Source: Puniceicoccales bacterium
GTDB lineage: Bacteria; Verrucomicrobiota; Verrucomicrobiia; Opitutales; JAIRLM01
Direction of reading: 5' to 3'
DNA length: 32,000 nt
NCBI GenBank assembly: GCA_031268535.1
Contig: JAIRXB010000010.1
Location: 1-32,000, forward strand
In this document: in pieces, positions 1 through 23,602 of the stretch
How positions within the stretch are numbered: the first letter of the stretch is position 1
Layout: the number at the start of each line of letters is the position of its first letter
Notes under the pieces: generated by a model
The model's input: only the letters and a program-made list of their open reading frames with translations
Database searches by the model: none
What the model was told of the DNA's origin: nothing
Position numbers and translations under genes: made by a program

Positions 1-1991
1 TTAGCTGACAGCTTAGTTAGTTCATAGAAAAACCCTCTCCCGCGAAAAGCCGGCGCGAAAACACCAATGCCACCAACGCCACAGAGGCAATGCCCCAATG
101 CAGCACGAAGCATAGATTCGCCATCGGCTATATGGCTAATAACATCAGTCGCTTCTTTTGCTTTGCGCACCCAGTCGCCAAAGCCATCGGCGGGAAATGT
201 TCCACCAAACAAATCGGCAAATGCGTCAACGGACGTGAGCAACGCTTCTTTCGCCGCCTCCACATGCGGGAGAACCACCTCCACAACAGCTGGTTTTAGC
301 GCCGCACCGGCACCTCCGACATTTGGATCGCCAATGACTTGGCCAGCATTTGCCGCCGCCACATCCGAGGGCACTGAAGATGCTGCTGGCGATGATGCGG
401 ACTGTGCGGACTCCGGCTGATTTGACGTCGACGAAACAGGCGACGCTTTCTGAGCTGGTCGGGCAGACTGTGCCGGCACATGCGCAAGCGGATTTGAACC
501 TGACTTCTGAACTGGCGGTTGCGAAGGCTCCACAGGCAGAGTAGAACTGGACGCATCCCCAGCTCCAGGCGGCGAAACTGGAGGAGGTTGCGAATCGGAT
601 TTCTTGGACGTCTCAGCCCGTGAATCATCTATCACTAGCTGGAGCGCAGACGATTGCGGAGCGGACGGAGGTGCAGCTGGAGGCGGATTTGTCTGCGGCT
701 GAGGCTGGCTGCCATGTGCGGCACTTTGCTGAGCATCCAACGGAGGAGCACCGCCGCCCTGCGGGCTGGCCGGAGGAAGATTTGCTGCGACTGTCGTTGG
801 CATCGGTTGCGCCGAAGAGGCTTGTGCATTCGCGGAGCCGGACGATTGAGCCGGCACGGATTGGGATTGGGACGCTGCTTGCGGAAGATTTGAACCGAGT
901 TGCTGAGAAGGCGTAGCTGCAGGCGGTACGCCGCCGCCTTGGCTGGCCAAAGGAGGATTTGGGCCAGATTGAGAAGCAGGCGCTTGCGGAGGTGTAGCCG
1001 AAGAAGGATTTACGGCACCTGGCGCTAGAGAAGATTGCAGAGCCGGTTGGCCAAGCGGCAGTTGCACAGCTGGAGGCGATTGCGGTTGCGCAGCTGCAGG
1101 CGGCGAAGGCGGAAGCTGCGCTGTTGGCTCTTGGGGAGCACCATCGGCCTGCGGAGGCATGAGCGGACCAAGTTGCTCAACTGGCGGTTGCAAAGGCTCC
1201 ACAGGCGGAGCAGAACTGGATGCATCTTCAGCTTCAGACGGCGTAGCTGGAGGAGATTGCGAATCGGATTTCTTGGACGTCTCGATCTGCGAAATATTTG
1301 GCGCCGACGGTGGCACAGACGATGACGGCGGCGGAGCAAGAGGCGGTTTCGGAGCTTGTTGGACAGGCGGCGGTTGCGGTTGCGCAGCTGAAGGCGGATT
1401 TACCTGCGGCTGAGGCTGGCTGCCATGTGCGGCACTTTGCGGGGCGCCCAACGGATGGCTGGACGGCGGCGGAGCAGACGGCTGCGACGGCGCCTGGCTC
1501 TGAGGCGAAAGCGAAGCAGATGCGGACGGCTGGCCCGGAAGATTTGGCGGCGCTGACTCCTGCTGCTGCGCCACGGCCGAACCGCCATTGTCGCCACCGG
1601 CCGCATCTTCGTCGCCTCCTGCGCCATCTGAATCGGATGGCACGGCGGCGCCGGCGGCAATTTTGCCGCTTTTCCCACGGTCCGCCTTTGCATGCCGAAG
1701 TGCGCTCCACAGCAAATTGAGCTGCGCACCGCCTCTGTTGATTTGAACCGCAACATACGTAAGTAGCGCAATCCAATATATTCCGGCGGTAAAAATCGTT
1801 ACTGCGACAATCAGAATTACGTGCTTTGCCGCAAGACCTTTGGCAACAGCCGCCAGCTGATTGCAGCCTTCCGTACGGCAAGCGGAAACCATATCGTCGG
1901 AGCTGGCGCCGGCAAGCACCCTAACGAATGCACTGCTAATTGCCGTAGCCGCACCAACCTTCGGCAAACCTGCGACACTACCCTTAATCAT
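1..1991 (-). CDS. Membrane-anchored Pro/Gln-rich protein, family member 1 (3' end cut by the window edge)
   Basis: Not in the ORF track because this frame has no stop before position 1. Manual translation from the ATG at 1989-1991 (in-frame TAA upstream at 2004-2006) gives MIKGSVAGLPKVGAATAISSAFVRVLAGASSDDMVSACRTEGCNQLAAVAKGLAAKHVILIVAVTIFTAGIYWIALLTYVAVQINRGGAQLNLLWSALRHAKADRGKSGK. About 480 aa of P/Q/S/A-rich low complexity follow (e.g. SAPPPSSHPLGAPQSAAHGSQPQPQVNPPSAAQPQPPPVQQAPKPPLAPPPSSSVPPS). The sequence then reads ...VDAFADLFGGTFPADGFGDWVRKAKEATDVISHIADGESMLRAALGHC... and runs off the window. All listed minus ORFs in this region are in the other two frames. Confidence 0.75.
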   Translation of the reverse strand, partial: MIKGSVAGLPKVGAATAISSAFVRVLAGASSDDMVSACRTEGCNQLAAVAKGLAAKHVILIVAVTIFTAGIYWIALLTYVAVQINRGGAQLNLLWSALRHAKADRGKSGKIAAGAAVPSDSDGAGGDEDAAGGDNGGSAVAQQQESAPPNLPGQPSASASLSPQSQAPSQPSAPPPSSHPLGAPQSAAHGSQPQPQVNPPSAAQPQPPPVQQAPKPPLAPPPSSSVPPSAPNISQIETSKKSDSQSPPATPSEAEDASSSAPPVEPLQPPVEQLGPLMPPQADGAPQEPTAQLPPSPPAAAQPQSPPAVQLPLGQPALQSSLAPGAVNPSSATPPQAPASQSGPNPPLASQGGGVPPAATPSQQLGSNLPQAASQSQSVPAQSSGSANAQASSAQPMPTTVAANLPPASPQGGGAPPLDAQQSAAHGSQPQPQTNPPPAAPPSAPQSSALQLVIDDSRAETSKKSDSQPPPVSPPGAGDASSSTLPVEPSQPPVQKSGSNPLAHVPAQSARPAQKASPVSSTSNQPESAQSASSPAASSVPSDVAAANAGQVIGDPNVGGAGAALKPAVVEVVLPHVEAAKEALLTSVDAFADLFGGTFPADGFGDWVRKAKEATDVISHIADGESMLRAALGHCLCGVGGIGVFAPAFRGRGFFYELTKLSA
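505..1560. repeat. Internal duplication within the Pro-rich linker of family member 1 (two homologous 0.25-0.35-kb blocks offset by 669-711 bp)
   Basis: actggcggttgc(g/a)aaggctccacaggc(a/g)gag occurs at 511 and 1180. gcgaatcggatttcttggacgtctc occurs at 590 and 1259. ctgcggctgaggctggctgccatgtgcggcactttgc occurs at 693 and 1404. At protein level ETSKKSDSQSPPATPSEAEDASSSAPPVEPLQPPVEQ matches ETSKKSDSQPPPVSPPGAGDASSSTLPVEPSQPPVQK, and QSAAHGSQPQPQ occurs twice. Confidence 0.7.
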
Positions 1992-1999
1992 TTGACATA

Positions 2000-2029
2000 A
2001 TTCTTAGCCGCTGCGCAACGAGTAGTCAA
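2000..2029 (-). promoter_or_regulatory. Candidate sigma70-like promoter for family member 1, at the edge of direct-repeat copy A
   Basis: On the minus strand: TTGACT (2024-2029), a 17-nt spacer, then TAAGAAT (2000-2006), 8 nt before the ATG at 1991. The TTGACT box and 17-nt spacing are conserved in repeat copy B. This is pattern matching only. Confidence 0.25.
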
Positions 2030-2090
2030 ACGGAATCTTCAGTCCGCGAAGACAAACAATCCAAACAAGCACCGAAACGCCACACTAGTT

Positions 2091-2354
2091 TTAAACGGAA
2101 GATGGCACCACAATAGCATTGCCATCGGCAAAATAATTGATGCGAAAATTATCTTTATGCAATATGCCAACGGTCGTTTTAATTGCTTTGATTTTGGCAC
2201 CATTGTCCGCGACATCCTTCAGCATTGCCTCAGCCGCGATGCGCACCGCCGTCCTCGCGCCTCTAAATTCAACACATTCTGCTTCGTCACTTTTCCCCGT
2301 ATTCATTCGGCCGCGTGAAGCAACCATTTCCATGCAAATGGAAACGAAAGGCAT
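2091..2354 (-). CDS. Small conserved hypothetical protein (87 aa), intact copy
   Basis: ORF MPFVSICMEMVASRGRMNTGKSDEAECVEFRGARTAVRIAAEAMLKDVADNGAKIKAIKTTVGILHKDNFRINYFADGNAIVVPSSV. It is co-directional with the flanking genes. The ATG and the stop context are both conserved in repeat copy B. Several inter-copy substitutions are silent (GCG/GCA, GAC/GAT, GGT/GGC). However, the antisense plus ORF 2137-2418 shares the same wobble positions, so the strand call rests on context. Confidence 0.5.
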   Translation of the reverse strand: MPFVSICMEMVASRGRMNTGKSDEAECVEFRGARTAVRIAAEAMLKDVADNGAKIKAIKTTVGILHKDNFRINYFADGNAIVVPSSV

Positions 2355-2372
2355 TTTCTTTTCCGGCTTTTG

Positions 2373-2513
2373 CTATTCTTTTTCCACAACTCCATATCGA
2401 TACTGGCATTTTCTATGAATATGAAACTTGCAATTATCGATCGTTCCATTGACGCCCTCTTTCGCTAACGCCATACACTTTCGGAACGAGGTTGCTGTCC
2501 GGCATCCTAGCAT
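2373..2513 (-). CDS. Candidate small Cys-containing ORF (46 aa) at the start of the repeat module
   Basis: MLGCRTATSFRKCMALAKEGVNGTIDNCKFHIHRKCQYRYGVVEKE. Copy B (14689-14799) encodes MLGCRTATSFRKCMALAKEGADGAIDNCKFHIHGKR. Four of 9 changed codons between copies are silent in this frame, against 1 of 7 in the overlapping frame. No convincing Shine-Dalgarno sequence. The region could instead be a conserved untranslated or regulatory element. Confidence 0.25.
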   Translation of the reverse strand: MLGCRTATSFRKCMALAKEGVNGTIDNCKFHIHRKCQYRYGVVEKE

Positions 2514-2949
2514 TCTCGCAAATAAATCCACAATTCGCACACATATGGGCATCTTCCATGCATCTAGCCACGGCATTCTCGCCGTCAAAACTGTGCGGCA
2601 GCAGACAGGGCCATGCGCGCACTGCGCGCTTAAGCGAGCAGCCTCTAAAGCAACCGGAGAAGCGATCTTTAGCTCGCTTCGGCGCAACGGCAAGTGTATC
2701 ACTGACCAACTCATCTAAGCGCTTACAGTAAGTCTCATCACCGCGATACCTTGTCGGCCCTTTGAGCTCATCTTGAACCCGATCAATTCCTCCAACAATT
2801 TCATATGGCATTCCACCCACATTGCCAAAGCAGTCAACAATGTCTCTTTCTTCAATGAATCTGAACTACAACTCTTTCGCCATGCGCCGATAGATAAAAG
2901 ATTTAATTGACGCTTCATTAACTAATTTGCGCGGCAGGAAATTTTTCAT
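2434..2949 (-). pseudogene. Cys-rich module, paralog copy 3, with an in-frame TAG at 2866-2868
   Basis: One frame reads MKNFLPRKLVNEASIKSFIYRRMAKEL*FRFIEERDIVDCFGNVGGMPYEIVGGIDRVQDELKGPTRYRGDETYCKRLDELVSDTLAVAPKRAKDRFSGCFRGCSLKRAVRAWPC... It is colinear with the C-terminal half of the 3001-3903 protein: FIDEELRKSFNFEIKG...IIERVEQIQEMFKGLPKCGGDVTRCKCLDELLLD...ASGDALVRAVGEIS. Confidence 0.45.
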
Positions 2950-3000
2950 GTGCTTAGCCGCCACATTCATGCATTTAATTGCACAGTCTAAATCACTACC

Positions 3001-3903
3001 CTATTCCAGCACAACCAATTTATATTGGCCATTTCCCTCCCGTACTGGCGCTATCGTATTGATAGTTGCTATGGCAGCCGTTTCTGCCATACGATTGGCG
3101 ATGCCGTCAATCACATTGTTATAGCCCGCGAATGACAGACACCAAGGGAGTGTCGTCGCAACGACATCTGGCGCAGTTGCCGCATTAGCCACAGCTGAGC
3201 TGGGCGGCCTAAACACCATACGGGACAGTTCACAGTAAGCTCCTACGGCGCCCCGACAAAATTGCACGCCTTCATATTGCGCGCTATTGGAAATTTCTCC
3301 AACGGCGCGCACCAACGCATCGCCGCTAGCTTCCCTGAAGGCGTCCGCATAGGATTCCTCCGATACGTTGAAGAATGCATCAAGGAGCAGCTCGTCTAGA
3401 CACTTACAGCGAGTCACATCGCCGCCGCACTTTGGCAATCCTTTAAACATCTCCTGTATCTGTTCGACTCTTTCAATAATTGAACATAGCAGCCAATTCG
3501 CGAAATCGGAACCCTTAGGAGTATTTTCCTCTAGAAAAATGTCGGCAATGCGATTGACTCCCTTTATCTCAAAATTGAAAGATTTACGCAACTCTTCATC
3601 AATGAATCTGGAAACCGGAAAATTCACTCCGCATTCAGTCAGCTTAGTTAGTGACGAAATCGCATCGCCAAGATCCCCACTCTCCTTCAACAAAGCCAAT
3701 CTAGTTCCTGACCACTCACGTTCAGTTTCTGGCCAAATACGTCCACAGCTCGACAACTTCGCTAGCTTCACTGCACCAATGATCGCCGCACTAGCCATTT
3801 TCGAAAGAAGCTCTCCAATGCAGTCAGTCAATGCGCCATACTTCCTGAACAGCTCCAAAGCCACTCCGGACTCGATCGCCTTGGCTTTAGCTGCGCTGAG
3901 CAT
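3001..3903 (-). CDS. Hypothetical Cys-containing protein (300 aa), paralog copy 2 (intact)
   Basis: ATG-initiated 300-aa ORF whose start abuts the stop of the upstream ORF (TAGATG at 3901-3906). It contains the module ...CKCLDELLLDAFFNVSEESYADAFREASGDALVRAVGEISNSAQYEGVQFCRGAVGAYCEL, shared with the 3904-4110 and 2434-2820 ORFs. I recognise no known domain. Confidence 0.7.
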   Translation of the reverse strand: MLSAAKAKAIESGVALELFRKYGALTDCIGELLSKMASAAIIGAVKLAKLSSCGRIWPETEREWSGTRLALLKESGDLGDAISSLTKLTECGVNFPVSRFIDEELRKSFNFEIKGVNRIADIFLEENTPKGSDFANWLLCSIIERVEQIQEMFKGLPKCGGDVTRCKCLDELLLDAFFNVSEESYADAFREASGDALVRAVGEISNSAQYEGVQFCRGAVGAYCELSRMVFRPPSSAVANAATAPDVVATTLPWCLSFAGYNNVIDGIANRMAETAAIATINTIAPVREGNGQYKLVVLE

Positions 3904-4444
3904 CTAAAAGGCTGTAGTCAGCAGTTTGCAGCGAACTCCTGCAGCGCCATCAGGACAGAAGCACCGATCATCCCATCCGCTATTCTTCACAGCGCAGGAG
4001 ATTTCTTCAACTGCGCGCACCAACACATCGCCGCTGGCGCCCACTAGACATCGCTCCATAAGAAACCTGCACAGAACGCAAGGATCTTTCGCACATTCCT
4101 TATCGCCCAATACGCACTGTCCGCCATTACTAATTGATCGCTCAAACAGATCATTTACAGCGCTCTACGTAGCGCAAGTGCAGGATGTCGCGTAGTTTGC
4201 CGTTACGATTTAAGCCGGCATAGCCGGATTCGCTAGCAATCCTCCACAACACATCGCAAATCGCATCGAAGTTTTTGTTATTTGCGGACGTTTCGCAGCC
4301 ACGAGACCAGTCGCACACCGCACTCCAACAACTACTGTTCAAACTCTCGTTAATCGCCACATAATGCGATGTCATCGCTGCAGAGAGCCATAAATAGAGA
4401 GCATTGCTGTTCACTGGCACCGTGCTTACAATGGCGGTGCCCAA
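3904..4444 (-). pseudogene. Cys-rich module, paralog copy 1, apparently split by a frameshift near 4151-4164
   Basis: ORF 4151-4444 (...VAINESLNSSCWSAVCDWSRGCETSANNKNFDAICDVLWRI...) aligns with the N-terminal part of the module (LVNEASIKSF / FIDEELRKSF). A second frame is open from 4164 to 3904 (SAVNDLFERSISNGGQCVLGDKECAKDPCVLCRFLMERCLVGASGDVLVRAVEEISCAVKNSGWDDRCFCPDGAAGVRCKLL) and supplies the C-terminal part. Both listed ORFs start at TTG. They could also be two genuine small genes. Confidence 0.4.
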
Positions 4445-4450
4445 TAGTTT

Positions 4451-7400
4451 CTAAATGCGCTTACTGTTAAGTTCCCTCAAAGAATACCGAAGTGAATAGC
4501 GAAAGTAGTCCCGGACTTTCAATTCTCTTTCGCCTAACGCACATTTGTCAACCGCGTCGGCTACGGCTGACAGCCGTAGTAGGGCGCCTTGCAAATCATT
4601 CACGTCCACTTTGCCCAAACACAACAACTCTAACATAGAGCTAATCTCGCAAAAAATATTTTCAATACATTCGATGCCACTCGATCTGCACATGGCGACT
4701 AGCTCATTACAGACCGCAGCAGCACCACTCTCGGACGCGCTTGAATCAACAACCGCCAAAGCAACGATACGGTCAATCGCTGTTCGCCTTACACCGGCAA
4801 TTTTGCCAAACCCCAGTCCGAAATCGTAGTAGCGGCAGTCATGCGCAGCCAACTCACCGCGGAGATGCCAAATGTCGGTAATAAACCTACACACTTCACC
4901 AATGCGGCCCATAGACAAATTCTCTGCAGCCATGCACCCTTTAAGTAGCGCGCAAATTTCACCCAAAAAACCCATGCAGCGCGGCGATGCGCCGGAATAA
5001 TAATATCCGCCACTGCGTAGCGCACGGGCGCACGCAGCAAGAGCCGCATCCCTCATGCTTGCGTCAGCCATATCGTCGTCCAACATAGACTTTACGGTGA
5101 CAATTGCTCTGATGCCATCCGCCGTGTGCGGCAGCAAATCGAAATCAAAAAGAGACCCAAACTTGCCGCTAAGCGCTTCGCACAGCGCTTTGACATTCTC
5201 TTCGGAGCGTGGTCCGCAATTGGCTAATTTATTCCTGATTTGATCTACGCAACCATAGCACACATTCCCTTCGCCGTCAACAATGGCGGCCGATATGGCT
5301 TCGCAGATCTCGCCAATTTCAGTCGCATCAGCGACGGCAGACTTATCGCCAAGAAATTTGCCGATCGCGTCGATGGCATCATCGACTTTTTTTCGGTTGC
5401 TGGCAACTTCAATGTCAAATTCTAGACATCGCACCACATCCGCCACAGCAGCGTCACCGGCAGAACCACCGGCCGAAGATTTAAGAACATCGCACAGCAC
5501 ATCCATGGCGGCATTTATGGAGGCGGCGCTAGTGTCTTTTGCCACTTCGCTCGGCATCTCCACTTCCGCAAGCGCACTTACTCTCAAATCAAGGGAACTC
5601 TCCGGCGATAGCCGTAGCCAACGGCACAGGTGATCCGCCAAGAATTCGTCGATTTTCCCGTTCACACACACTGCCGCTAAGAGCTTGTCGCGCACATTTT
5701 GGTCTCCGAGACCTACACCGTTTGTGATTCCTTCCGCAATCAAGCGCTTCGCCGCATTCAACTTATCGTAATTGGCAGCGTATCTAATGGCGCCAATCAT
5801 CAAAAGGTAGCTTTTTTCGCCATGGGTCACACTGGGGAAACGTAAAAGCTCCATCAACTTGTTATATTCTCTACTCACAGTTGGGGCTTTGCTTGCCATT
5901 TCCCCAAGCAAATTGTCAACGACGCTGGATAAAAGTCTGAGATTTCCACTGTCCACCTTTTCGCCATCCACAAGTACGAACTTCAAAATTTCTTCCTTGG
6001 CGGCAGTAACATCAACTGCTTCGCCGTAGGCGGCTTTGCGAAGCAAAGCCACTATGGAGTGCAGCTCGCAAATCGAAATAAGCGGCTCGACAATTACACT
6101 TTTAAAAGTGCTACCAGTTCCTCCCTTCCATGGGGGGAACTTGAGCGCCGCAAGCAATTCATCGGGGTTTTCGTTTTGGAGTGCGGCGTCATGGATTTTT
6201 CCGCAGCCATATCCTTTGAAGCCGCAAAAACTTGATAGTAAAATTTCTTCGCAGGTTTGGTTGACCTTCCCATCGACAAAAACGGCAGATTCGTATGCCG
6301 CAAAAACCTTTTTGAAGTCAGCCTCTTTGCCCTCGAGCGCGGCAAACAAACTGCTTCTAGCGGTCGACATCTCGCTAAATTTCGCCGCCGCTAGCGCTGC
6401 GCGGGACAGTGCGACATTCGCATTATGATGATGTTTGGTGCTGTCACCAAATGAAATGGCCAGCTTCGCTAAATCGTCGGCGTCAGCGGCCGCGGGTTCG
6501 CCAAACGGCAAAAGCAAATGGGGGAGTTTGCCAAAAACAAGATGCGCGAAATAACCCTCACGGACATTAAGGCGACTCAGGCAGCTACTGTAGTCCACTC
6601 CACCGCGAAATTTGTCGAGGGAAGACTTCCACCCGTCGGTCACATCAGAAACTAATCCTCCTACGGCAGCAATGACTTCTACACGGGTAGTGGTAGGCGG
6701 TTTTTTACCGCTCACCGCTGCAATGACTCCAAGATATGCTCCATAGGCTATAGCAAGCTCTTTATTTCTTGCGTAATCACCATCAGATTTTTCGACCGCG
6801 GCAGCGGGAGGACTATAGCCAAGGAGCTCCATAAGACCAGCTGTGTGACATCTGATTTCCTGCGCACCATCAGAAGTCCTGTCGGTGAAATGCGCAAAAA
6901 TATCCTTAAGTCCGGCTGCGGCACTGCCGTCGCCATAGCCATCGCGGCACAAGTTTTCGATGCAACTCATAATGCAACGCACATGTTTCCTATGCCAAGA
7001 TTCTAAGTTGCAATCAGCTCCTCCGGACGCATTCCGCAAATCATTCCCCAACTCCCCACGCAGCGAACCAATCAATTGGTCGGCCAAATTGATAACTTTT
7101 CTAGTTTTTTCGAGGTCACTGTCGCACTTTTCAAGTGCGCCCACCGCTTTTGCCCGCAATCTTTCACTAATGGCAAGACCAGGTTTTGACGGCACGATAG
7201 GGGTTTTGCCCGCTTTAGCGGGGTCCAGAAGCGCATTTTGAAATAATTCAAAGGCTGACTCGTCAACATTCCACTTTTCTCCGCTACGTACGGTTAACCG
7301 TAAGCGCATGGCGTCGACGAAGCCCTCAAGCAATCGATCCGATTCATCTTCACTTTCCCGTTCCCTCAGAAGAGATGCCCACACGGCGACGGCGCAGTTG

Positions 7401-10400
7401 GTGCGCACAGAGTCGTCTTGATCGGAGCCGCAATATGCCACCACAAGCGCTGCGGATTTATCGAGCGCAGTTTCGCACAGTTTCGCGTCCTTGCTTGTCG
7501 CGGCAAAATCAAACAATTCACCAACAAGATCGATCGGAAACGGAACTGACTCATTTCTCCACTTGCCATCTTCAGAAACAAATAGGCAGAGCCCGCCACT
7601 TATGGCGACTCCGGCATGTGACAGCTCCGCAAGCTCAGTTACTGCTTTGTCGCCGACAGCTTTGATGAACATGTCATCTACGTGATGCAGTGCGCAAATC
7701 GAAATGAGCGGCTCGGCAATTGCCCGTTTAAAAATGCTACCGGTTTCCGCACTCCATTGGGTCGACCCGAACGCCTCAAGCAATGCATCGGGGGTTTTGT
7801 TTTGGAGTGCGGCTGCACGCAATTCATGGTTATTACCTCTGAAGCCGCAAAAATCTGATAGAAAAAATTCTTCGCAGATTTGGTTGACCTTCCCATCGAC
7901 AAAAACGGCAGTTTTGTATGCCTCGAGAACCTTTTTGTAGTCCTTTTCTTTGCCTTCGATCGCGGCAAACAAATGTTTCTTGGCGGCCTGCATCTCGCTA
8001 AATCTCACCACACCTATCGCGCCCATGGATAACTCGACATTCGCATTATGGGGATGGTCGGTGCTGTCACCAAATGAAATTGCCAACTTCGCTAAATCGT
8101 CGGCGTCAGCGGCCGCAGGTTTGCCAAACGGCAAAAGTAAATTGGGGAGTTTGCTAAAAACAAAACTCGAAAAACGCCGTTGGATCGTTTCACTGCCCCG
8201 TTCGACGGGCGCAGAGCTCCGCCACCCATCGGCAGCATTAAAAACTAATTCTCCTACTGCAGCAATGACTTCTCCACGGGTGGTGACAGGCGGTTTTTTA
8301 CCGCTCACCGCCGCAATGACTTCAAGATATGCTCCATAGGCTGCAGTAAGCTCTTCACTGCTTGCGTAATCACCGTCAAATTTTTCGACCGCGGCGTCGC
8401 GAGGGCAATAGCCAAGAAGCTCCATGAGATCAGCTGTGTGACGTCTGATTTCCGTCGCACCATCATAAGTCCTGCCGGCGAAATGCGCAAAAATATCCTC
8501 AAGTCCGGCTGCGGCATTGCCGTCGCCGCAGCCATCGCGGCACCAGTTTTCGACGCAACTCAAAAGGCAACTGACGTGCTCATTGTGCCAAATGTAGTCC
8601 GCATCTTTTTCGGCGACATCCAGCAAATCATTCAGCCCGTGGGCCAAACCGAAAACTTGCCCAGTTTTTTTGAAGTCACTGTCGCACTTTTTAAGTGCGT
8701 CCACCGCTTTTGCCCGCAATCTTTCACTAATGACAAGACCAGGTTTTGACGGCGCGATAGGGCTTTTGCCCGCTTCGGCGGGCTCCGGAAACGCATTTCG
8801 AAATAATTCAAAGGTGGACTCGTCAACATTCCACCCTTCTCCGCTACGTACGGTCAACCGTAAGCGCATGGCGTCGACGAAGCCCTCCAGCAATCGATCC
8901 GATTCATCTTCACTTCCTCCCCGTTCCCTCAGAAGAGATGCCCACACAACGCCGGCGCAGCTGGCGCGCACAGCAGAGTCGTCTTGATCGGAGCCGCAAT
9001 ATGCCACCACAAGCGCTGCGGATTTATCGAGCGCAGTTTCGCGCAGTTTCGCGTCCTTGCTTGTCGCGGCAAAATCAAACAATTCATCCACAAGATGAAT
9101 CGGAAACGGAACTGACTTATTTCTCCACTTGCCATCTTCAGAAACAAATAGGCAGAGCCCGTCATCTATGGCCATTCCGGGACGTGACAACTCCGCAAGC
9201 TCAGTCATTGCTTTGCCGCCGGCAGCTTTGATGAACAGGTCCTCTATGGGCCGCAACTCGCAAATCGAAATAAGCGGCTCGACAATTACACTTTTAAAAG
9301 TGCTACCAGTTCCTCCCTTCCATGGGGGAAACTTGAGCGCCTCAAGCAATGCATCGAGGTTTTCGTTTTCGAGCGCGGCGCAATGGATTTTTCCGTGGCC
9401 ATGTTTTCCGAAGCCGCAATGCAATGATAGAAGAATTTCTTCGCAAGTTTGATTGACATTCCCATCGACAAAAACGGCAGATTTGTATACCTCAAAAACA
9501 CTTTCGTAGTCATTTTCTTTACCTTCGAGTGCGGCAAACAAACTGCTTCTAGCGGCCTTCATCTCGCTAAATCTCACTACACTTATCGCATCCATGGACA
9601 GCTCGACATTCGCATTATTGGGATGCTCGGTGCTGTCACCAAATGAAATGGCCAGCTTCACTAGCTCGTCAGCGCCAACGCGGCCACCAAGCGGCAAAAG
9701 TAAATTTGGGAGTCCGCTAAAAACAAAACTCAAAAAATACCGTCGGATCGTTTCACGGCCACGTCCGACGGACGCAAAGCGCCGCCACCCATCGACAGCA
9801 TTAAAAACTAATTCTCCTACGGCAGCAATGGCATCTCCGCGGGTACCTGGCGGTTCTCTATGGCGCACATTTGCAATGGCGTCGCGCACTTCAAGATATG
9901 CTCCATAGGCCATAGCAAACTCTTTGCTTCTTGCGTAATCACCGTCAAATTCTTCGACCGCGGCAGTGGGAGGGCTATAGCCAAGGAGCTCCACAAGATC
10001 AACTATGCCACATATGGCTTCCTGCCCCAAAGTAAACATGCCGCTGATGCTCCACTCCAGAATATCCGCAAGTTCGGCTGCGGCACTGCCGTCGCCACAG
10101 CCATCGCGGTACCAGTTTTCGACGCAACTCATAATGCAACGCACATGTTTCCTATGCCAAAATCTTAAGTTGTAATCAGCTTCTCCGAACGCATCCCGCA
10201 AATTATTCTCCAACTCCCCACGCAGCGAACCAATCAATTGGTCGGCCGAATTGATAACTTTTCTAGTTTTTCCGAGGTCACTGTCGCACTTTTTAAGTGC
10301 GTCCACCACTTTTGCCTGCAATCTTTCACTAATGACAAGACCAGGTTTTGACGGCGCGATAGGGTTTTTGCCCGCTTCGGCGGGCTCCAGAAACGCATTT

Positions 10401-14197: not shown

Positions 14198-14288
14198 TGG
14201 CGAAACTCACCCTTCCAGATGGACTCGCAACAGAAACATATTGGCCGCAAAGCATCCTTACGGCTTCACCCACAATCTCTTGGGGTGA

Positions 14289-14317
14289 GCCATAGCCGCT
14301 GCGCAATGAGTAGTCAA
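14289..14317 (-). promoter_or_regulatory. Candidate promoter for the giant gene at the edge of direct-repeat copy B
   Basis: On the minus strand: TTGACT (14312-14317), a 17-nt spacer, then TATGGC (14289-14294). It is positionally equivalent to the copy A candidate. The -10 element is weak. Pattern matching only. Confidence 0.2.
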
Positions 14318-14378
14318 ACGAAATCTTCGGTCCGCAAAGACAAGCAAGGCGAACAAGTGTCGAAGCGCCACACTAATT

Positions 14379-14640
14379 TTAAACGGAAGATGGCGCCCCA
14401 ATCGCATTGCCATCGGCGAAATAGTTGGTAGGGAATCATCTTTGCGCAATGTGTCGATGGTCGTTTCAATTGCTTTGATTTTGGCGCCATTATCTGCGAC
14501 ATCCTTCAGCATCGCCCCAGCCACGATGCGCACCGCCGTCCTCGCGCCTCTAAGCCCAGCACATTCTGCTTCGTCACTTTTCCCGCATTCATTTGGCCAC
14601 GTGAAGCAATCATTTCCGTGCAAACGGAAATGAAAGGCAT
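14379..14640 (-). pseudogene. Frameshifted copy of the 87-aa small ORF
   Basis: The ATG at 14638-14640 gives MPFISVCTEMIASRGQMNAGK. A 1-nt loss follows (GGGGAAAAG in copy A, GGGAAAAG here), and a second 1-nt loss lies near the C-terminus. The middle part (SDEAECAGLRGARTAVRIVAGAMLKDVADNGAKIKAIETT) is conserved only in a shifted frame. Confidence 0.55.
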
Positions 14641-14688
14641 TTTCTTTTTCGGCTTTTACTAGTCATTTTTCACAATCCAATACCGACA

Positions 14689-14799
14689 TTAGCGTTTTCC
14701 ATGAATATGGAATTTGCAATTATCGATTGCTCCATCGGCGCCCTCTTTCGCTAGCGCCATACATTTTCGGAACGAGGTTGCTGTCCGGCATCCTAGCAT
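14689..14799 (-). CDS. Copy B of the candidate small Cys-containing ORF (36 aa)
   Basis: MLGCRTATSFRKCMALAKEGADGAIDNCKFHIHGKR. See the 2373-2513 entry for the substitution argument and caveats. Confidence 0.2.
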   Translation of the reverse strand: MLGCRTATSFRKCMALAKEGADGAIDNCKFHIHGKR

Positions 14800-14856
14800 C
14801 CTCGCAAATAAATCTCCAACCCCTTCGCATGGGGTCAGTCTTGCGTTGAAAGTAAA

Positions 14857-14936
14857 TGGTCGGGATGACTGGATTTGAACCAGCGACTTCTACGTCCCGA
14901 ACGTAGCGCTCTAGCCAGGCTGAGCTACATCCCGAC
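14857..14936 (-). tRNA. tRNA-Pro (anticodon CGG), with encoded CCA
   Basis: The reverse complement is GTCGGGATGTAGCTCAGCCTGGCTAGAGCGCTACGTTCGGGACGTAGAAGTCGCTGGTTCAAATCCAGTCATCCCGACCA. It has a 7-bp acceptor stem (GTCGGGA/TCCCGAC), an anticodon stem CTACG/CGTAG with loop TTCGGGA, and a T-arm GCTGGTTCAAATCCAGT. Confidence 0.92.
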
Positions 14937-15626: not shown

Positions 15627-15634
15627 GGCCCGCA

Positions 15635-16374: not shown

Positions 16375-16752
16375 CTAGGAACAACCGTCCTGAAGCGAAC
16401 TCACTATGGCGCGGAAGGCCGCCAAGTGGCGCAGCGGCTGCAGATGTTGATCTTTTTCCATGCGCTGGGAGTCGTCATAGCCTAGCCCGACGGCGATCTT
16501 TAGGTGTTCAATGGCGAACTGAGCTTGGTTGGAAGCGGCAAATGCACAGCCGAGTACGTAGTGCAAATCTGGACTGTTCGGGTGCAAAACCGCAGCGCGC
16601 ACACTCACCTGTAGAGCTTCTCCAATCTGGCCGCAGTCCAAACACAGCTCGCCGAGCTTTAGCAGCGTTGGTAAATCATTGCCACATTTGGCGGCGAGCT
16701 TTTCGAAAAATGCAAGCTGAAAGGCCTTATCTTCGGCAAAACGTTTTTTCAT
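16375..16752 (-). CDS. Small TPR-like protein (125 aa)
   Basis: MKKRFAEDKAFQLAFFEKLAAKCGNDLPTLLKLGELCLDCGQIGEALQVSVRAAVLHPNSPDLHYVLGCAFAASNQAQFAIEHLKIAVGLGYDD... shows TPR-like helical-pair periodicity. The ATG at 16750-16752 lies 4 nt after the argS stop. The longer track ORF (to 17058) would overlap argS by 300 nt. Confidence 0.6.
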   Translation of the reverse strand: MKKRFAEDKAFQLAFFEKLAAKCGNDLPTLLKLGELCLDCGQIGEALQVSVRAAVLHPNSPDLHYVLGCAFAASNQAQFAIEHLKIAVGLGYDDSQRMEKDQHLQPLRHLAAFRAIVSSLQDGCS

Positions 16753-16756
16753 CGTC

Positions 16757-18601
16757 TCACATCCTACCCAGAGGTTCAATAGCAAGCAATTTGAGTCCAA
16801 TTTCCAGAAAATTCCCAGCGCTTTTGCAGAGGCCAAGTCTTCTGGCAACGGCGACATCGCCCTCTCCAAAAATGCGATTTGCACCGTAGAACGAAGAAAA
16901 TTCCACGGCAAGATCATATAGGTAGGAGCAAAGAACGTGTGGGCGAAAATCCCCCATGGCCATGGCCAAAGCGATCGGGAAAAAAACCAGTCGCCGCGCC
17001 AGCGTTCGCTCTTCGGCCGTTTCCGGCACCGGTCGCGCGCTAGGCGTCGCGCCCTCATCGGCCCCGCGCCTAACGATTGCCCCTATGCGAGCGCACGCAT
17101 ACTGCAGATATGGCGCTGTATTTCCGTCAAACGTAAGCGCGCTATCCAGAGAAAATACATAGTCTGAAGTTCGATTTTGGCAAAGATCGCCATACTTAAT
17201 GGCGCCGACGGCGACGGCACGGGCTATGCGCTCCCTTTCGCACAGATCTGCCACAGAGCTCTTTTCGGCGACAATGCGAACGGCTTGGCCAATGGCGCTG
17301 TCGAAGAGATTCTGCAGGCTCGGCGATTCGCCACTGCGCGTTTTTATGGCTTTCCCGCCGTCGCCGCAAACGGTCCCAAACCAAACGTGCCTCAGAGTCG
17401 GCACGGCGTAGCCCATTGCCCCAAACCATTTCCTGACCGTAAGAAAAAGCTGTTCAAAATGATCTCGCTGGCGACCGTCCGTAACGTAAATAATTTCATC
17501 GGCACCAAGTTCCTCAACGCGGTACAGGACGGTCGCCAGATCGGTGGCGGCGTAGTTCGATGCCCCATCAGATTTACGCACTATGAACGGCTGCTCCCCG
17601 AAACGGTCGTGCTCGCCGTGAAACACAACGAGTGCTCCATCGTCCTCGACGGCCACTCCGCACCGGAGTAGCTCCCCATAGACGCGCTCCACCATTGGGG
17701 CGTAGAACGATTCCCCCAAAACCATGTCAAATTGCACATCACAAAGATCGTAAATGCGCTGGAAAGACCCATAGGAAAGTTCGTTTATCTTCCTCCATAT
17801 GCTTAGGCGGACAGGATCACCCACCTGCAGCGCAACCAATTCCCGCCTGGCCCCAAGCAGAGCATTCGGCGAACGCTCTACGGCGGCAGCGCCACGCCTA
17901 TAGAGCTCCTCGATGCAATCTAGCGCATCATCACCCGAAAGCGAATCCAAGTCTAGGCCCTCTTCGGCAATTTGGCGCAGCACTATGCCGAATTGCGTTC
18001 CCCAATCGCCTATGTGGTTATCGCCAAGAGCTTTTGCCCCAAAAAATTTTTCCATGCGGCAAATTGCATTTCCGATTACCATCGAACGGAGATGACCAAC
18101 GTGCATGCGTTTGGCACTGTTTGGACAGGAGTAGTCCACCACAACCGTGCGCCCGGCCAATTCAGTTGCCGCAGAGGCGGCTCTGCGAAAATTTTCGCCG
18201 TCGCCGTAGGTCGCCAGCCAATCGCCAATGGCCGAGGCATTCAGTTCCACATTGACAAATCCAGGTCCGGCAACCTCAGCGGAAGCAATGGCCCTAAATG
18301 TGCCATCGAGCATCAATTCGGCGCAAAGTTTTTCAGCAAGTTGGCGCGGATTTTGGCCGAAGCGTCCACCCATCGCCAAAATTCCATTGCACTGGAAGTC
18401 ACCAAACCGTCCCGCTGCGGGGCGCACTAGGGGACAGAAATCATCGCCAAAGGCGCACCGCCCACGGCCAATTGAGCCAATTAGCCCCTCAAAGTGCCGC
18501 TGGAAATCGAACGGAGCACCACCCATAGCGATTCTTATGCATAGCGCCATTTCGCGACTGAAGTCTAGTAAATAGTGCAACCCATAGCATTTTTCACCCA
18601 T
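16757..18601 (-). CDS. argS: Arginine--tRNA ligase
   Basis: Class I HIGH region SCPNSAKRMHVGHLRS. N-terminal ArgS-like block FGDFQCNGILAMGGRFGQNPRQLAEKLCAEL...VAGPGFVNVEL. Anticodon-binding C-terminus ...YLQYACARI...L. The true start may be an internal Met (MALCIRIAMGG...). Confidence 0.95.
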   Translation of the reverse strand: MGEKCYGLHYLLDFSREMALCIRIAMGGAPFDFQRHFEGLIGSIGRGRCAFGDDFCPLVRPAAGRFGDFQCNGILAMGGRFGQNPRQLAEKLCAELMLDGTFRAIASAEVAGPGFVNVELNASAIGDWLATYGDGENFRRAASAATELAGRTVVVDYSCPNSAKRMHVGHLRSMVIGNAICRMEKFFGAKALGDNHIGDWGTQFGIVLRQIAEEGLDLDSLSGDDALDCIEELYRRGAAAVERSPNALLGARRELVALQVGDPVRLSIWRKINELSYGSFQRIYDLCDVQFDMVLGESFYAPMVERVYGELLRCGVAVEDDGALVVFHGEHDRFGEQPFIVRKSDGASNYAATDLATVLYRVEELGADEIIYVTDGRQRDHFEQLFLTVRKWFGAMGYAVPTLRHVWFGTVCGDGGKAIKTRSGESPSLQNLFDSAIGQAVRIVAEKSSVADLCERERIARAVAVGAIKYGDLCQNRTSDYVFSLDSALTFDGNTAPYLQYACARIGAIVRRGADEGATPSARPVPETAEERTLARRLVFFPIALAMAMGDFRPHVLCSYLYDLAVEFSSFYGANRIFGEGDVAVARRLGLCKSAGNFLEIGLKLLAIEPLGRM

Positions 18602-18781
18602 TTGGCATTTTACCCGCAGACGACGCAGCGGCTAGGGCATTTTCCACTTTGCCGGCGAAATTCCGCGCCGTAGCGCTACGGCAGATTATCCGGCCACAAA
18701 TTCCAACGCACCAATGGCGCTGCACATCCATCCGCCGACTCCGGAAAACCAAAAGCGCCGCCGCAATTGGCGGCATAAACG

Positions 18782-19876: not shown

Positions 19877-20209
19877 TTTTCGCCGAAAATGTCAATGTTG
19901 TTTGCTAACTTTTCCATGGGGGAAGCACATTTCACGGAATGGCAATGGCCATCGCCGCCGCACCCTACGGATTGTTTGCCCAACGTAGCCATGGCGCCTA
20001 TCATAATCGCTCCGCATGAAAAATTGACCTAGGCGCTTAGGGTTGTCAACTTTGGAATTGTTGTGGGCAGCGACAATTTGAGCGAAACGATCGCATAGAG
20101 CAGCCAGCCAACCCATTGAAGGCCGACGGCGGTTTCGTCGACAACTTGGCAAATCCGCAGCTCATTCGCAGGCAAATTGCGAACCATCCGCAAATTGCCG
20201 CCGCCGCTA

Positions 20210-23200
20210 ATGGATCGCTGGCCGTCTAGTGTTTTATTGGGTCTCACCCCAATTCAACGCTTCCAAGCGGTATTTTTACGTGGCCGATTTTTCATTGACA
20301 GTCTGGCCATTTTGCAATTGCATAGCGCAATCTTGGGTGAGGTCGGCAGGTTGGAGGTTAGCACGCTTGCCAAGGTCGCCATATTGACTGTAAGCAAAAA
20401 CTCTTTTGCGAACGTTAGCAATGCAACTATCGCGCAGCAGCTGGAAACCGTGCGGCAAACGGAGCTAGGCGTGGGGTGCATTTTCGTCCTGATAGTGTTA
20501 ACAATTGTTAGCGCCGGAATAGTTTGGGTGGTGCTGGCCGCCTACGCCGCCTATGCCATCGGAAATCCGAAAACAAATCTGGGTCGCATTAGAGCGCTCT
20601 GCAGCAGTAGTGCTGCCGCCGGCGAGCCGGTCGATGGGCATGGAGAAATGAGGCATCAAGTCGCAGAAAAGGATGGCCCAACTCCAATTGGGGCAGCTGC
20701 CCAACAAAATGCAACCGGTGGCACTAGCGGTGACACTCCAGGCGGGACGCAAGGAAGTGGCGCCGGACCGCTGCGGCCACCAAGTTCGAAAGCGCCAACG
20801 CAATCGCCGCAGGGCATCACTCCGCAATCGAGCGCCCAACAGCCACCGCTCCAGCCAGCACCGGCAATTACGCAGCCGGCCACTACTCCGTCGGCAGCAC
20901 AGCAATCGCCACAATCTAGCGCAGCTGCTTCTCCGCCTGCGCCAACTGGCGGAGGGAGAGGTGGCCCGTCGGCAGCTCCGCAATCGGCGGCTGCGGTTGC
21001 GCAACCTCAACGGCCTCCATCAACAGGTGAACTACCAGCGAAATGCAATGCCTACCTTTTCTTCGAGCAGCAAAACTTCTTTGGTAACAAGTCAAGTCTA
21101 TCCAAATCAGCCCAGTGCGACGAGCCCCCAAGCAGACTTTTCGCTTCTTTTTTGTGTGTAGTTGATTCGAAACCGAAAAACGAGACCGACATCGACGCAT
21201 TGGCGTCATGGCTTTCCTTCAAAATTGAAGACATGGAACGCACCGGGAAACCCTATAAACGACGCTGCATTTTTCAATTAATTTCTTGCGCAATCGCCAG
21301 CGGCAAAGTCTCAAGTGACGGCGTAAAAAAATTAGAAACCGCCATACTTCCAGTTAGAGAAACGTTTGCACGTGACCTGCTAGACTCCTTTGGTGAATTT
21401 TTTGGCAATCTCCTCAAAAACGGACTACTACGTGAACGGCGTCAGTACGATTGGGTTTTAAGTGCTACTAAAGCAGCTACTGAGCGGGAGTTCCTAGTTA
21501 TCATCAGGGAAAATATTGACAATATGGCCGAATTGCTAATCTACGCTAGCCGGTCATACGAAGACCCAGCAAGTGGCGTTGCGGACATAAAACACTTCGC
21601 GAACTTTTTTTCGCGCGACAGTTTTTTTAGTAAGTTGATCAGGTTTTTCCCGCCAAACGACAGAAATTCGTTGGCGTGCAGAATCCTCGAAAAATATGCC
21701 GATTGCGTCAATTGCTCCGACAAAGCCAACCATCCGGAAATTGTCATGGCGATGGCGTACGCCGCCTATGTTGACGGAAGATCAACGTGCGCAAATGTCG
21801 CACTCAGAAAACTGCTTTATAATATTTCGCATGACGCGCACGAAGCCATTTGCGGCAGCAAAGATTCCGCCAAGTTCGTAGCAGCCGGATACAAGTTAAC
21901 TGACGCGAAACTCAACATGAACCGTCTTCGTCAGGCTGATGATGTGCTTGAGTTTCTTCAAATTAACAATTGCGTGCTTAGCAATTTTTTGGCGCTAGCA
22001 ACCAGTGGCGCCATTCCGCAGAATCAGAAAGTTAAAACTTTAGCCGAATCGGCTTTTGCCTTACTCCACGCAGCTAACCCGCAAGATTCGTACATTGGGG
22101 TCGGCTGCACACTTAGTGGCATCGAGTTGCTCGATAGTGCCGATCGCGCAGGATCAATTGAGCTGAAACAGTTCGCATTTGGCGCGGAAGATCCAACGCT
22201 AAGCAATTGCGAAATTCGAATCGGAGAGATAGTCGCAAGTCGCATTATTAACAACGATGATGTGTTTGGACATCCCGATCGCATATTTGGAGCGCGAGCA
22301 TTTTTGCTGCTGCTTTCCACGCAAGTGCTGCGCAAGCTCGTTGCATATTCAAATCACGAATTGGTCACACGCAAAATTTTCGACAGTGAAAATGGCTTTT
22401 TGGCGGCAGTCATGGCTGGCGGAATTTTCTACGAACAGGCTGTATCATCCATTTCTGTCTCTTGCGGAAAATTTTCCGGCGATTCCCCATTTTTTATGGA
22501 GACCATAGCGTCTCTCGATATTCCGTCAATGACAATCGACAACGTCGAGTTGCTAACGGCGCTGCTAAAAAACATTCTTAGCGACAGCAGGATGCCGGAA
22601 TACGATTGCAGTTTCAAGCGGGAAATTGCATCCTTTATGGCCCGCCTTAAAGCCAGGAAAGATGCCCTTGAAAAAACCGACGAGAAGTCTACCGTTACCG
22701 GCATCGCCGCCAAAACCATTGGCGCAATCGCCGAATTGGCAAATAGTCTCGCCAGCATTGACGGCACAATTGGTGACATATATGGTGCCACCTCCGCGGC
22801 TTGGAATGGGATGCCGTGCCGCAACCTCGCCAAACAACTGCTTGGCGCAACAGCCGATCCAGAAAAGCTTTTCGCGGACAACCCGGAGCTCATCCGGGTG
22901 CTATTGTACATTGGAACCAGTTATGCTTCAATACAAAGTGGAAACGATAGAGTTAAATCGGCATCCAAACTTTGCGACACAGTTCTTTCAAATCTATGCG
23001 CCGATGGCGATGAAACAAACAATTCCATGCTGCGCTGCTTTTCTTCGAATGCTCTATACTTTATTGCCAATCCAGTTGACGAAATAAACGCATCCAATTA
23101 TACCGATGCATACGGTAAAGCGACAACAGCATTTACCAAATTACTGGATGAAATCGCCAAGTCGCCCGAAAACCTACCGCCAGTAGCCTTTTTCACCTGC

Positions 23201-23602
23201 GAATGGAGCAATCAGTTTTCACAATTTAAACCGTTCGGCGCAGACTGGATTAGAAAAGGTTTTCGTGTAGCTCGAAGCCGTAAAGGATATCTCTTTTCCA
23301 GTAGCCGTGGTGACTATTCAAAGGCATTCATGAAAGATGGCCCCATATACGAATTGTTTGCGAGGGAAGTCGCAAGCGGTGAACCGCCGGCAGCCAACGT
23401 CGAGCGCGTCAAGTTGGCCTTTGAAAAAGGAATTATTGGCAGGCTCTGCTTTTCCTCCGAAGGGAAATGGACAGGTGGTGACGCAAATCTGCTGATAGTC
23501 ATGCTCACCGAAATGGGAAATGATCAGCGATTCAGTGCCAGCGAATGCAAAGCGCTGCTCGCGGCGCTAATTGACAAGGTAAACTCAGCAAGCAAGCAGT
23601 AA
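20210..23602 (+). CDS. Membrane-anchored Gln/Pro-rich protein, family member 3 (about 1,130 aa)
   Basis: The track ORF starts at TTG 20177; the first ATG is at 20210. The hydrophobic segment is GVGCIFVLIVLTIVSAGIVWVVLAAYAAYAIG (about nt 20468-20563), followed by NPKTNLGRIR. A Q/P/S/A-rich region follows (about nt 20670-21045: ...QSPQGITPQSSAQQPPLQPAPAITQPATTPSAAQQSPQSS...). The remaining unique domain of about 850 aa has no motif I recognise. Confidence 0.8.
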   Translation: MDRWPSSVLLGLTPIQRFQAVFLRGRFFIDSLAILQLHSAILGEVGRLEVSTLAKVAILTVSKNSFANVSNATIAQQLETVRQTELGVGCIFVLIVLTIVSAGIVWVVLAAYAAYAIGNPKTNLGRIRALCSSSAAAGEPVDGHGEMRHQVAEKDGPTPIGAAAQQNATGGTSGDTPGGTQGSGAGPLRPPSSKAPTQSPQGITPQSSAQQPPLQPAPAITQPATTPSAAQQSPQSSAAASPPAPTGGGRGGPSAAPQSAAAVAQPQRPPSTGELPAKCNAYLFFEQQNFFGNKSSLSKSAQCDEPPSRLFASFLCVVDSKPKNETDIDALASWLSFKIEDMERTGKPYKRRCIFQLISCAIASGKVSSDGVKKLETAILPVRETFARDLLDSFGEFFGNLLKNGLLRERRQYDWVLSATKAATEREFLVIIRENIDNMAELLIYASRSYEDPASGVADIKHFANFFSRDSFFSKLIRFFPPNDRNSLACRILEKYADCVNCSDKANHPEIVMAMAYAAYVDGRSTCANVALRKLLYNISHDAHEAICGSKDSAKFVAAGYKLTDAKLNMNRLRQADDVLEFLQINNCVLSNFLALATSGAIPQNQKVKTLAESAFALLHAANPQDSYIGVGCTLSGIELLDSADRAGSIELKQFAFGAEDPTLSNCEIRIGEIVASRIINNDDVFGHPDRIFGARAFLLLLSTQVLRKLVAYSNHELVTRKIFDSENGFLAAVMAGGIFYEQAVSSISVSCGKFSGDSPFFMETIASLDIPSMTIDNVELLTALLKNILSDSRMPEYDCSFKREIASFMARLKARKDALEKTDEKSTVTGIAAKTIGAIAELANSLASIDGTIGDIYGATSAAWNGMPCRNLAKQLLGATADPEKLFADNPELIRVLLYIGTSYASIQSGNDRVKSASKLCDTVLSNLCADGDETNNSMLRCFSSNALYFIANPVDEINASNYTDAYGKATTAFTKLLDEIAKSPENLPPVAFFTCEWSNQFSQFKPFGADWIRKGFRVARSRKGYLFSSSRGDYSKAFMKDGPIYELFAREVASGEPPAANVERVKLAFEKGIIGRLCFSSEGKWTGGDANLLIVMLTEMGNDQRFSASECKALLAALIDKVNSASKQ

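Follow-up and report, generated by a model that had tools for sequence, protein, structure and literature searches.

The 32,000-nucleotide stretch analysed here, positions 1 to 32,000 of contig JAIRXB010000010.1 from an uncultured Puniceicoccales bacterium of the phylum Verrucomicrobiota (hereafter the window), carries three large genes, g1 and g2 on the minus strand and g3 on the plus strand, whose products are almost certainly paralogues of a real, homologous, modular family. Judged by its alignments, the family is a conserved N-terminal module (N-module) of ~100 aa (amino acids) fused to exchangeable heads that are unrelated between paralogues. All three proteins share one layout: an N-region of 48-90 aa, one very hydrophobic segment, a basic flank, a disordered linker rich in Pro, Gln, Ser, and Ala (P/Q/S/A), and a large all-alpha domain. 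The family is an undescribed one of a known kind, either bitopic modular membrane proteins or membrane effectors, and its members are probably host-interaction proteins. The reading preferred here, at a probability of roughly 40% and by analogy, is that they are secreted and anchored in host membranes by a mechanism like that of the chlamydial Inc proteins.

A hydropathy scan finds a single strongly hydrophobic segment near the N-terminus of each of g1, g2, and g3. The three hydrophobic cores quoted in the first-pass annotation, which had been made from the letters of the window, are found at these genes exactly as quoted. The (S/T)(A/V)GI(V/Y)W motif ascribed to them turns up in just three places when all six frames of the window are translated, one in each gene. 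The basic stretches that follow the anchor are NRGG..R in g1, RRIKNR in g2, and GNPKTNLGRIR in g3.

Pairwise BLAST of the N-modules gives E=3e-6 for g2 and g3 and E=4e-4 for g1 and g3; for g1 against g2, the anchors are not aligned. A profile of the three N-modules, run exhaustively with HMMER against 1.84 billion representative proteins, returns six proteins: P0001, which is g3 itself, P0002 (E=2.9e-23), P0003 (E=1.3e-21), P0005 (E=9.6e-6), P0006 (E=2.8e-4), and P0004. The E-values range from 2e-34 to 3e-4 when P0004 is left aside. This last protein, of 2264 aa with 29 copies of 'GSLLIAFDILTAGALWVGEARETS...', is counted as spurious because its weak repeat matches merely add up and because it is not hydrophobic. 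The profile search of N-region plus anchor that had been proposed at the outset therefore yields four further members, all from one lineage, and these four (P0002, P0003, P0005, and P0006) are the only ones beyond g1, g2, and g3 in that collection. All real matches are annotated 'hypothetical protein [Puniceicoccales bacterium]' and come from two metagenome-assembled genomes (MAGs), LBI39 and LBB38, both Puniceicoccales (Opitutales-type in GTDB). P0002 and P0003 belong to the window's own MAG, where they lie on a different contig (38.5 kb) and close together by locus tag (LBI39_01240 and LBI39_01250); P0005 and P0006 belong to the second MAG (LBB38). Neither g1 nor g2 is present in either of the two large protein collections searched.

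The layout from N-region through anchor and basic flank to P/Q-rich linker recurs in all four further members. Two of them, P0002 and P0003, are short proteins that stop within the linker, and P0005 carries yet another C-terminal domain (C-domain). Across the members, the anchor is 23-31 aa long and begins at residue 49-91. Every one of the seven has T-I-x-(S/T)-x-G-(I/V)-x-(W/Y) as its central block, with a Tyr six residues on, and then the basic flank and (T/S)xIG. When the seven are aligned, T, I, G, and Y do not vary, and conservation falls in one uninterrupted stretch, the central block. A specific intramembrane contact is suggested by the polar and small residues conserved in the anchor core. 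The idea of one conserved helix face was discarded, as the conservation shows no helical periodicity (P=0.42). The more basic C-terminal flank, claimed for three proteins, holds in all seven members: the 15 residues after the anchor contain 2-4 Lys and Arg (K+R) in every member and the 15 before it 0-2, with totals of 19 and 10. The long P/Q/S/A-rich stretch behind the anchor is likewise borne out, with linkers of 115-440 aa and 50-96% P+Q+S+A. An upstream SDD..R(T/A)EG motif has fared only partly: it is present in g1 and g2 but not kept in P0002 and P0003 (GSADAT..HRVNG and GGGDAT..YRVDG), and on this alignment it should be dropped as a family feature because the closest paralogues of g2 do not keep it.

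The distribution of the N-module is very narrow. The pattern [LM]TI[VI]S[AVT]GI[VF][WY] matches 7 stretches in 596 Gb of species-representative genomes, one of which is confirmed, the P0006 locus in JAITDL010000061.1. In two scans of Joint Genome Institute (JGI) metagenomes, the motif pattern matched 111 times, and no match was confirmed. The members are clustered: g1, g2, and g3 lie together in the window, LBI39_01240 and LBI39_01250 form a second group, and two adjacent genes stand in JAITDL010000061.1. The earlier statement that the family belongs to no named group is upheld, since searches of all parts against Pfam, NCBIfam, PADLOC, and PDB sequences return nothing above noise. One search method requires care: the word-indexed protein search misses known family members, and its null results are weaker than they look. 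The seven-member N-module alignment gave no match in it even though members are in the collection, which is a word-index miss and uninformative.

Hydrophobic segments readily give spurious similarity, and the unaligned anchors of g1 and g2 in pairwise BLAST could point the same way. Chance resemblance of transmembrane helices is nevertheless effectively refuted, as is a cleaved signal peptide. The profile reaches E-values down to 1e-23 within a single lineage among 1.84 billion proteins, the motif is nearly absent from 596 Gb of genomes, and a local hidden Markov model of the family gives no match to the other membrane proteins of the window (E>5). Because the profile search finds same-lineage proteins only and the motif is kept in them, the anchor similarity is homology; by these criteria the module is a genuine homologous unit with a very narrow distribution. 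The first-pass annotation had allowed that the motif might prove no better than that of random transmembrane helices, or that the proteins might fall into unrelated, characterised families. Neither is so, given that the further homologues keep the motif and the profile searches assign no such family. A cleaved signal peptide does not agree with a segment of 23-31 aa that is preceded by 48-90 aa of N-region and in which no AxA site is conserved. The N-module is also conserved across two different MAGs.

The heads are as dissimilar as first described. BLAST between the C-domains gives E-values of 0.19-0.31, and low-confidence AlphaFold models contain ~75-80% helix. The models are all-alpha, and their predicted local distance difference test (pLDDT) scores are 50 (a g2 unit) and 43 (the g3 C-domain). 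Foldseek against the PDB returns importin-alpha and generic alpha-solenoids as best matches (E=0.011, TM-score 0.13), which is non-significant. Only noise-level matches are seen in the sequence searches, to DUF6693 (E=0.004, for the g2-like trio), Kinocilin, and a botulinum-like toxin (E=0.14). A full-length search with g3 retrieves only g3 itself among the best 8000 candidates, and a profile of the g2 repeat units finds no match in a large protein collection. The heads range from 190 to 2,900 aa. Their Cys content is 2.6-4.8%, and domains of 855-2,890 aa hold 22-75 Cys, which weakly suggests a reducing compartment; Cys content is a weak compartment marker, given the 1.8% Cys of an autotransporter-like protein encoded in the sister MAG.

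The giant g2 contains four tandem units whose pairwise ratios of nonsynonymous to synonymous substitution (dN/dS) are 0.85-1.19, with codon positions 1 and 2 differing more than position 3. The 9.7-kb frame has no stop, and all of its indels are in-frame. Neutral simulation predicts 4.5-8.8 stops per unit and a probability of no stop of 0.0005-0.007. Since the frame is open, the indels are in-frame, dN/dS is ~1, and the neutral probability of no stop is low, the repeats bear the signature of a maintained yet rapidly diversifying protein, and they offer a clean case of an open reading frame (ORF) kept intact at dN/dS ~1. Within the unit, codons 61-180 (120 codons) are much more conserved than the remainder.

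The Inc-like effector reading, which takes up the T3SS-effector alternative of the first-pass annotation, is preferred because it fits the lineage restriction, the clustering, the swapping of heads, the tandem expansion, and the dN/dS of ~1, and also because of the polyproline tracts, the neighbouring chlamydia-type genes for a type III secretion system (T3SS), and the likely host-associated lifestyle. It is favoured further because the nearest T3SS relatives are those of the Chlamydiae, to our knowledge the only group from which the export of very hydrophobic membrane proteins by the dozen is known. In the proposed mechanism, the N-region would carry the signal for export by the neighbouring chlamydia-type T3SS and the site where a chaperone binds, the helix would anchor the protein in a host-derived membrane, and the tether and the alpha-solenoid-like domain would remain in the host cytosol as a scaffold. 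The polyproline runs would be possible ligands of the profilin or SH3 type. Precedent exists, as many membrane effectors are exported by T3SSs, chlamydial Incs dominating (PMC6110835; PMC9993115), and such effectors mostly have two helices joined by 3-22 residues with both termini cytosolic (PMC9993115).

The T3SS itself may be represented in the window by two small genes with weak matches. The SctI-like gene has E=2.9e-5 and 24.9 bits against a cut-off of 32.4, and the CdsG/SctY-like gene has E=2e-9 and 1.5e-6, under the curated cut-offs. On these weak but mutually consistent matches, positions 31209-31991 would be the edge of a chlamydia-type T3SS cluster. The T3SS that had been announced about 8 kb away consists of these two weak, concordant matches, and no core T3SS gene is found inside the window.

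That absence, together with the weakness of the matches, is one of several points that count against an Inc-like effector. No class I chaperone gene is identified beside the family genes, and the first 25 residues of the members are not like the canonical Ser/Thr-rich T3SS signal. No eukaryote-like fold is demonstrable, because the AlphaFold models are of low confidence. Hydrophobicity points in the same direction. SRP (signal recognition particle) substrates lie at ~-2 on the Hessa scale, whereas T3SS membrane substrates lie at -1.5 to +0.5 over 12-17 aa, with a peak at ~-1 over 18-35 aa (PMC6110835). The anchors sum to -1.5 to -3.1 over 12-17 aa and to -1.3 to -3.7 over 19 aa on an unweighted scale that approximates dGpred, which is within the range of SRP substrates and classical single spans. 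The anchor is also single, not a two-helix bilobed segment: in six of the seven members, the next-best 19-mer sums to +5 to +13, and P0005 alone has a second, marginally hydrophobic segment (+0.4), ~24 aa from the anchor. With a single span, either the charged N-region of 48-90 aa or the giant C-domain must cross the membrane. As for which one, the first-pass annotation used the positive-inside rule to put the large domain on the cytoplasmic side. The local flanks of all seven members do favour a cytoplasmic C-terminus, but the rule leaves the orientation undecided because the whole N-region also carries 4-10 K+R.

The main rival, which the first-pass annotation had not considered, holds that the proteins are resident inner-membrane tethers laid out like ZipA, inserted co-translationally by SRP/Sec or YidC, with cytoplasmic heads that hold a partner at the membrane. 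ZipA has the same order of transmembrane segment, charged region, unstructured P/Q-rich tether, and globular cytoplasmic head (PMC6904479), and a charged or basic region and an unstructured P/Q tether follow the single span in all family members. An anchor hydrophobicity in the SRP range, equal to or above that of resident proteins of the window on the same scale (best -0.9 for the ABC permease, -2.6 for a Zn-peptidase-like protein), suits such a resident, as do the more basic C-flank, the Cys content of the C-domains, and the hint of an intramembrane contact in the anchor core. On the other hand, this layout would require an N-region that carries 4-10 K+R to cross the membrane with no signal peptide, and neither ZipA_C nor another known cytoplasmic domain is found in Pfam or NCBIfam. 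The transmembrane segment of ZipA is at the extreme N-terminus, residues 7-28 (PMC6904479), in a type Ib, N-out arrangement; its head is an FtsZ-binding domain, and no homology links it to the orphan heads seen here. Orphan, paralogue-specific, tandemly expanding domains at dN/dS ~1 would be unusual for housekeeping cytoplasmic proteins, and the family is absent from all other bacteria searched. Resident tethers are on balance an unlikely explanation, though the one with most in its favour after the Inc-like effector. The alternative of a TonB/TolA-like protein, which the first-pass annotation had offered, places the N-region in the cytoplasm, docks the helix in an inner-membrane motor or partner, and lets the spacer span the periplasm, with the large domain periplasmic or reaching the surface. 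A conserved single N-proximal anchor with a Pro-rich spacer recalls TonB and TolA, conservation is highest in the anchor core, as it is in TonB, and a K+R-rich N-region as a whole would suit a cytoplasmic N-terminus. Nevertheless, the reading is disfavoured as improbable because, of the defining traits looked for, only the Pro-rich spacer is seen. In place of a short cytoplasmic N-terminus there is an N-region of 48-90 aa. No TonB_C, TolA, or other periplasmic domain is found with Pfam or NCBIfam in g1, g2, g3, P0005, or P0006; the core TIxSxGIxW has no His and hence no SxxxH motif; and neither exbBD nor tolQR occurs in the window, JAITDL010000061.1, or JAITDL010000089.1. The local charge bias is opposite, in that the basic cluster right after the helix would be periplasmic, and the C-domains, 10-30 times larger than those of TonB and TolA and Cys-rich (2.6% in the 2,900-aa domain), are implausible in the periplasm, although the Cys point is weak.

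What probability the Inc-like, ZipA-like, and TonB-like readings leave over falls to decay or other explanations. Decaying or non-functional ORFs, whether junk particular to the lineage or genes on which selection has relaxed while the genome is being reduced, would account for the dN/dS of ~1 among the g2 units, the frameshift at the P0006 locus, the shortness of P0002 and P0003, and the absence of g1 and g2 from the protein collections. Such decay is very improbable, given that the 9.7-kb stop-free frame with only in-frame indels is hardly expected under neutrality, that the N-module is conserved between two MAGs, and that the excess of changes at codon positions 1 and 2 over position 3 points to selection for change, not to mere decay.

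The preferred comparison, with chlamydial Incs and other transmembrane T3SS effectors such as Tir, SseF/SseG, and SteD, rests on likeness of plan. These effectors have some tens of N-terminal residues, a hydrophobic anchor, and a large variable domain thought to be host-cytosolic. Like Incs, the present proteins form multi-copy, lineage-specific, clustered families in a bacterium of the PVC superphylum with a putative chlamydia-type T3SS, indicated here by weak matches. Inc anchors are conserved mainly in hydrophobic character, whereas the anchor here is conserved in sequence and followed by a long P/Q tether; there is no sequence similarity to Incs, and secretion is a prediction by analogy. 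Incs, like most such effectors, also pair two helices of 15-32 aa across a link of 3-22 aa (PMC9993115), in contrast to the one segment found here.

Effectors of another kind bear on the swapping of heads. Terminal reassortment, in which a shared N-terminal delivery module is said to be joined to swapped C-termini, was reportedly described by Stavrinides and colleagues in 2006. The conserved N-module joined to unrelated C-domains resembles this, and g1 and g2 also share a promoter-bearing upstream region. The resemblance has limits, as the shared upstream DNA halts at the start codon and the N-modules are only ~25-30% identical.

A fuller version of the effector reading, also by analogy and rather doubtful, is that the family would be an independent verrucomicrobial counterpart of the Inc arsenal, delivered by the T3SS, in a bacterium associated with termite-gut flagellates. 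One conserved, sequence-specific helix, as a single span or as a short re-entrant hairpin around the central S-x-G, would fix two things to host membranes: an FH1-like polyproline tether and alpha-solenoid scaffolds that diversify rapidly. A dedicated chaperone would recognise the conserved anchor block and shield the helix from SRP. If the proteins are injected and host-anchored, verrucomicrobial symbionts of protists would have their first described effector family, and the PVC superphylum a second, independently evolved way of placing bacterial proteins on host membranes. A single anchor conserved in sequence would then give a handle on how very hydrophobic helices are exported without loss to SRP. 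If they are resident tethers instead, the ZipA-like order of anchor, floppy tether, and head would be reusable as a cassette for unrelated heads. Either way, the N-module profile is a marker for such genes in related symbiont genomes.

Support for a host-associated lifestyle comes from the record of the second MAG. The confirmed P0006 locus is recorded as JAITDL010000061.1, 'MAG: Puniceicoccales bacterium isolate Nm470_bin13' (assembly GCA_031282565.1), and Nm470 is the lower termite Neotermes meruensis, which shows one of the two MAGs to be from a termite gut. The JAITDL accession is within the range deposited with a termite-gut MAG study (PMC11257099), which lists Opitutales among putatively endosymbiotic groups with nucleotide transporters. 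The window's own MAG (LBI39) presumably comes from that study as well.

Table 1. Coordinates of the family genes, their parts, and associated features in the window.
Feature	Positions	Strand	Remarks
g1	1-1991	-	open frame from ATG 1991 to window edge; fits family profile
g1 P/Q/S/A-rich linker	342-1655	-	~440 aa (~aa 113-550)
g1 N-module	1656-1991	-	N-region, anchor, basic juxtamembrane segment
g1 hydrophobic anchor	1740-1823	-	HVILIVAVTIFTAGIYWIALLTYVAVQI
g1 upstream region	1992-2533	-	~540 bp; duplicated upstream of g2; ends at sigma-70-like promoter (2029-2000)
g2	4451-14161	-	giant member, 3236 aa; ATG at 14161 backed by alignment with paralogues P0002 and P0003
g2 tandem units	6065-12406	-	four units of ~525 aa (~1.6 kb each), all-alpha; 61-72% aa identity
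g2 Pro-rich linker	13127-13813	-	~230 aa (~aa 117-345); polyproline runs; PPPPPP(P)AAKPAQPP twice
g2 N-module	13814-14161	-	
g2 hydrophobic anchor	13895-13966	-	TLLWIALTIISVGIVWVAYACYVF
g2 upstream copy	14280-14819	-	86% nucleotide identity; adjoins tRNA-Pro
g3	20210-23602	+	1130 aa from ATG
g3 hydrophobic anchor	20471-20560	+	VGCIFVLIVLTIVSAGIVWVVLAAYAAYAI
g3 P/Q/S/A-rich linker	20615-21034	+	~140 aa (~aa 136-275)
g3 C-domain	21035-23602	+	orphan, all-alpha, 855 aa, 22 Cys
Small genes with weak T3SS matches	31209-31607 (SctI-like); 31623-31991 (CdsG/SctY-like TPR)	-	7.6 kb from g3

The C-terminus of g1 is cut by the left window edge, leaving 663 aa visible. For g3, the NCBI call starts at TTG 20312, 34 codons downstream of the ATG, and gives the 1096 aa of P0001. 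The linkers reach a Pro content of up to 54% per 50-aa window. That of g1 contains an internal duplication of ~670 bp (507-744 against 1176-1455, 79-87% identity), by which the low-complexity tether is seen to grow, on this evidence, through segmental or internal duplication.

The upstream DNA shared by g1 and g2 is far more conserved than their N-modules (~25-30% aa identity), and the similarity stops at the promoter just before the g1 ATG. The upstream duplication and the origin of the N-modules are taken as separate events because the 86% identity ends at the start codon while the N-modules differ so widely. A small ORF of 71-74 aa, MNTGKSDEAEC...KIKAIKTTVGILHKDNF..., lies in the upstream region at 2094-2306 (-) and 14382-14584 (-). 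The copy before g1 is intact, two 1-nt deletions shift the frame of the copy before g2, and pN/pS is 0.47 over 50 codons. A family search with it gave no match; it could be a co-duplicated small gene, a candidate for a chaperone-like product, or non-coding. An RNA element in the duplicated region was considered and rejected, as Rfam gives the tRNA-Pro only, which is tRNA-Pro(cgg) at 14857-14934.

Several named identities were tried for the family and set aside. RodZ came into view through mreB, which adjoins g3, but no helix-turn-helix or other supporting domain or neighbour is present. An anti-sigma factor, a prepilin-like protein (from GFxxE in the g2-type N-region), and a prePAAR protein of a type VI secretion system likewise lack a supporting domain or neighbour, with no PAAR in the last case.

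The remaining genes of the window include housekeeping genes for ArgRS, MreB (divergent from g3), an ABC transporter, a McsB-like kinase, and a radical-SAM protein. Between g1 and g2, an orphan protein of 300 aa at 3001-3903 (-) is acidic (pI 5.0) with 3.3% Cys; a family search with it gave no match, and on its sequence features it could be another lineage-specific effector-type gene. Just upstream of it, positions 3877-4038 hold a degenerate partial copy of its residues 192-241. An ORF at 16375-17058 (-), which overlaps the 3' end of argS, contains tetratricopeptide repeats (TPRs), with matches to TPR_END_plus (E=3e-10) and, weakly, to an LcrH/SycD-like family (E=4.8e-5). Its true start is probably an internal Met; at ~125 aa, the product would then match class II T3SS chaperones in size. 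Two orphans stand beside the T3SS-like genes, a 361-aa protein at 30092-31177 (+) and a hydrophobic 224-aa protein at 28584-29258 (+), neither with a Pfam or NCBIfam match.

In the second MAG (JAITDL010000061.1, region 1-6347), the P0006 gene encodes the anchor and linker and is frameshifted after the linker. The ORF downstream of it, 5775-6347, is related to two C-terminal parts of the adjacent upstream gene (>1,460 aa), whose P/E-rich start runs off the contig; by this relationship, the upstream gene is probably a further tandem family member. An OPA-type MFS transporter gene and rpoD follow the tandem pair. P0005 adjoins an autotransporter-like protein of 773+ aa that ends ...GGEF (JAITDL010000089.1, 2631-4952, -), and because of this neighbour the lineage is suggested to have an outer membrane and to be able to use a type V secretion system (T5SS) for surface display. 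On the other side of P0005 is an OmpR-type response regulator.

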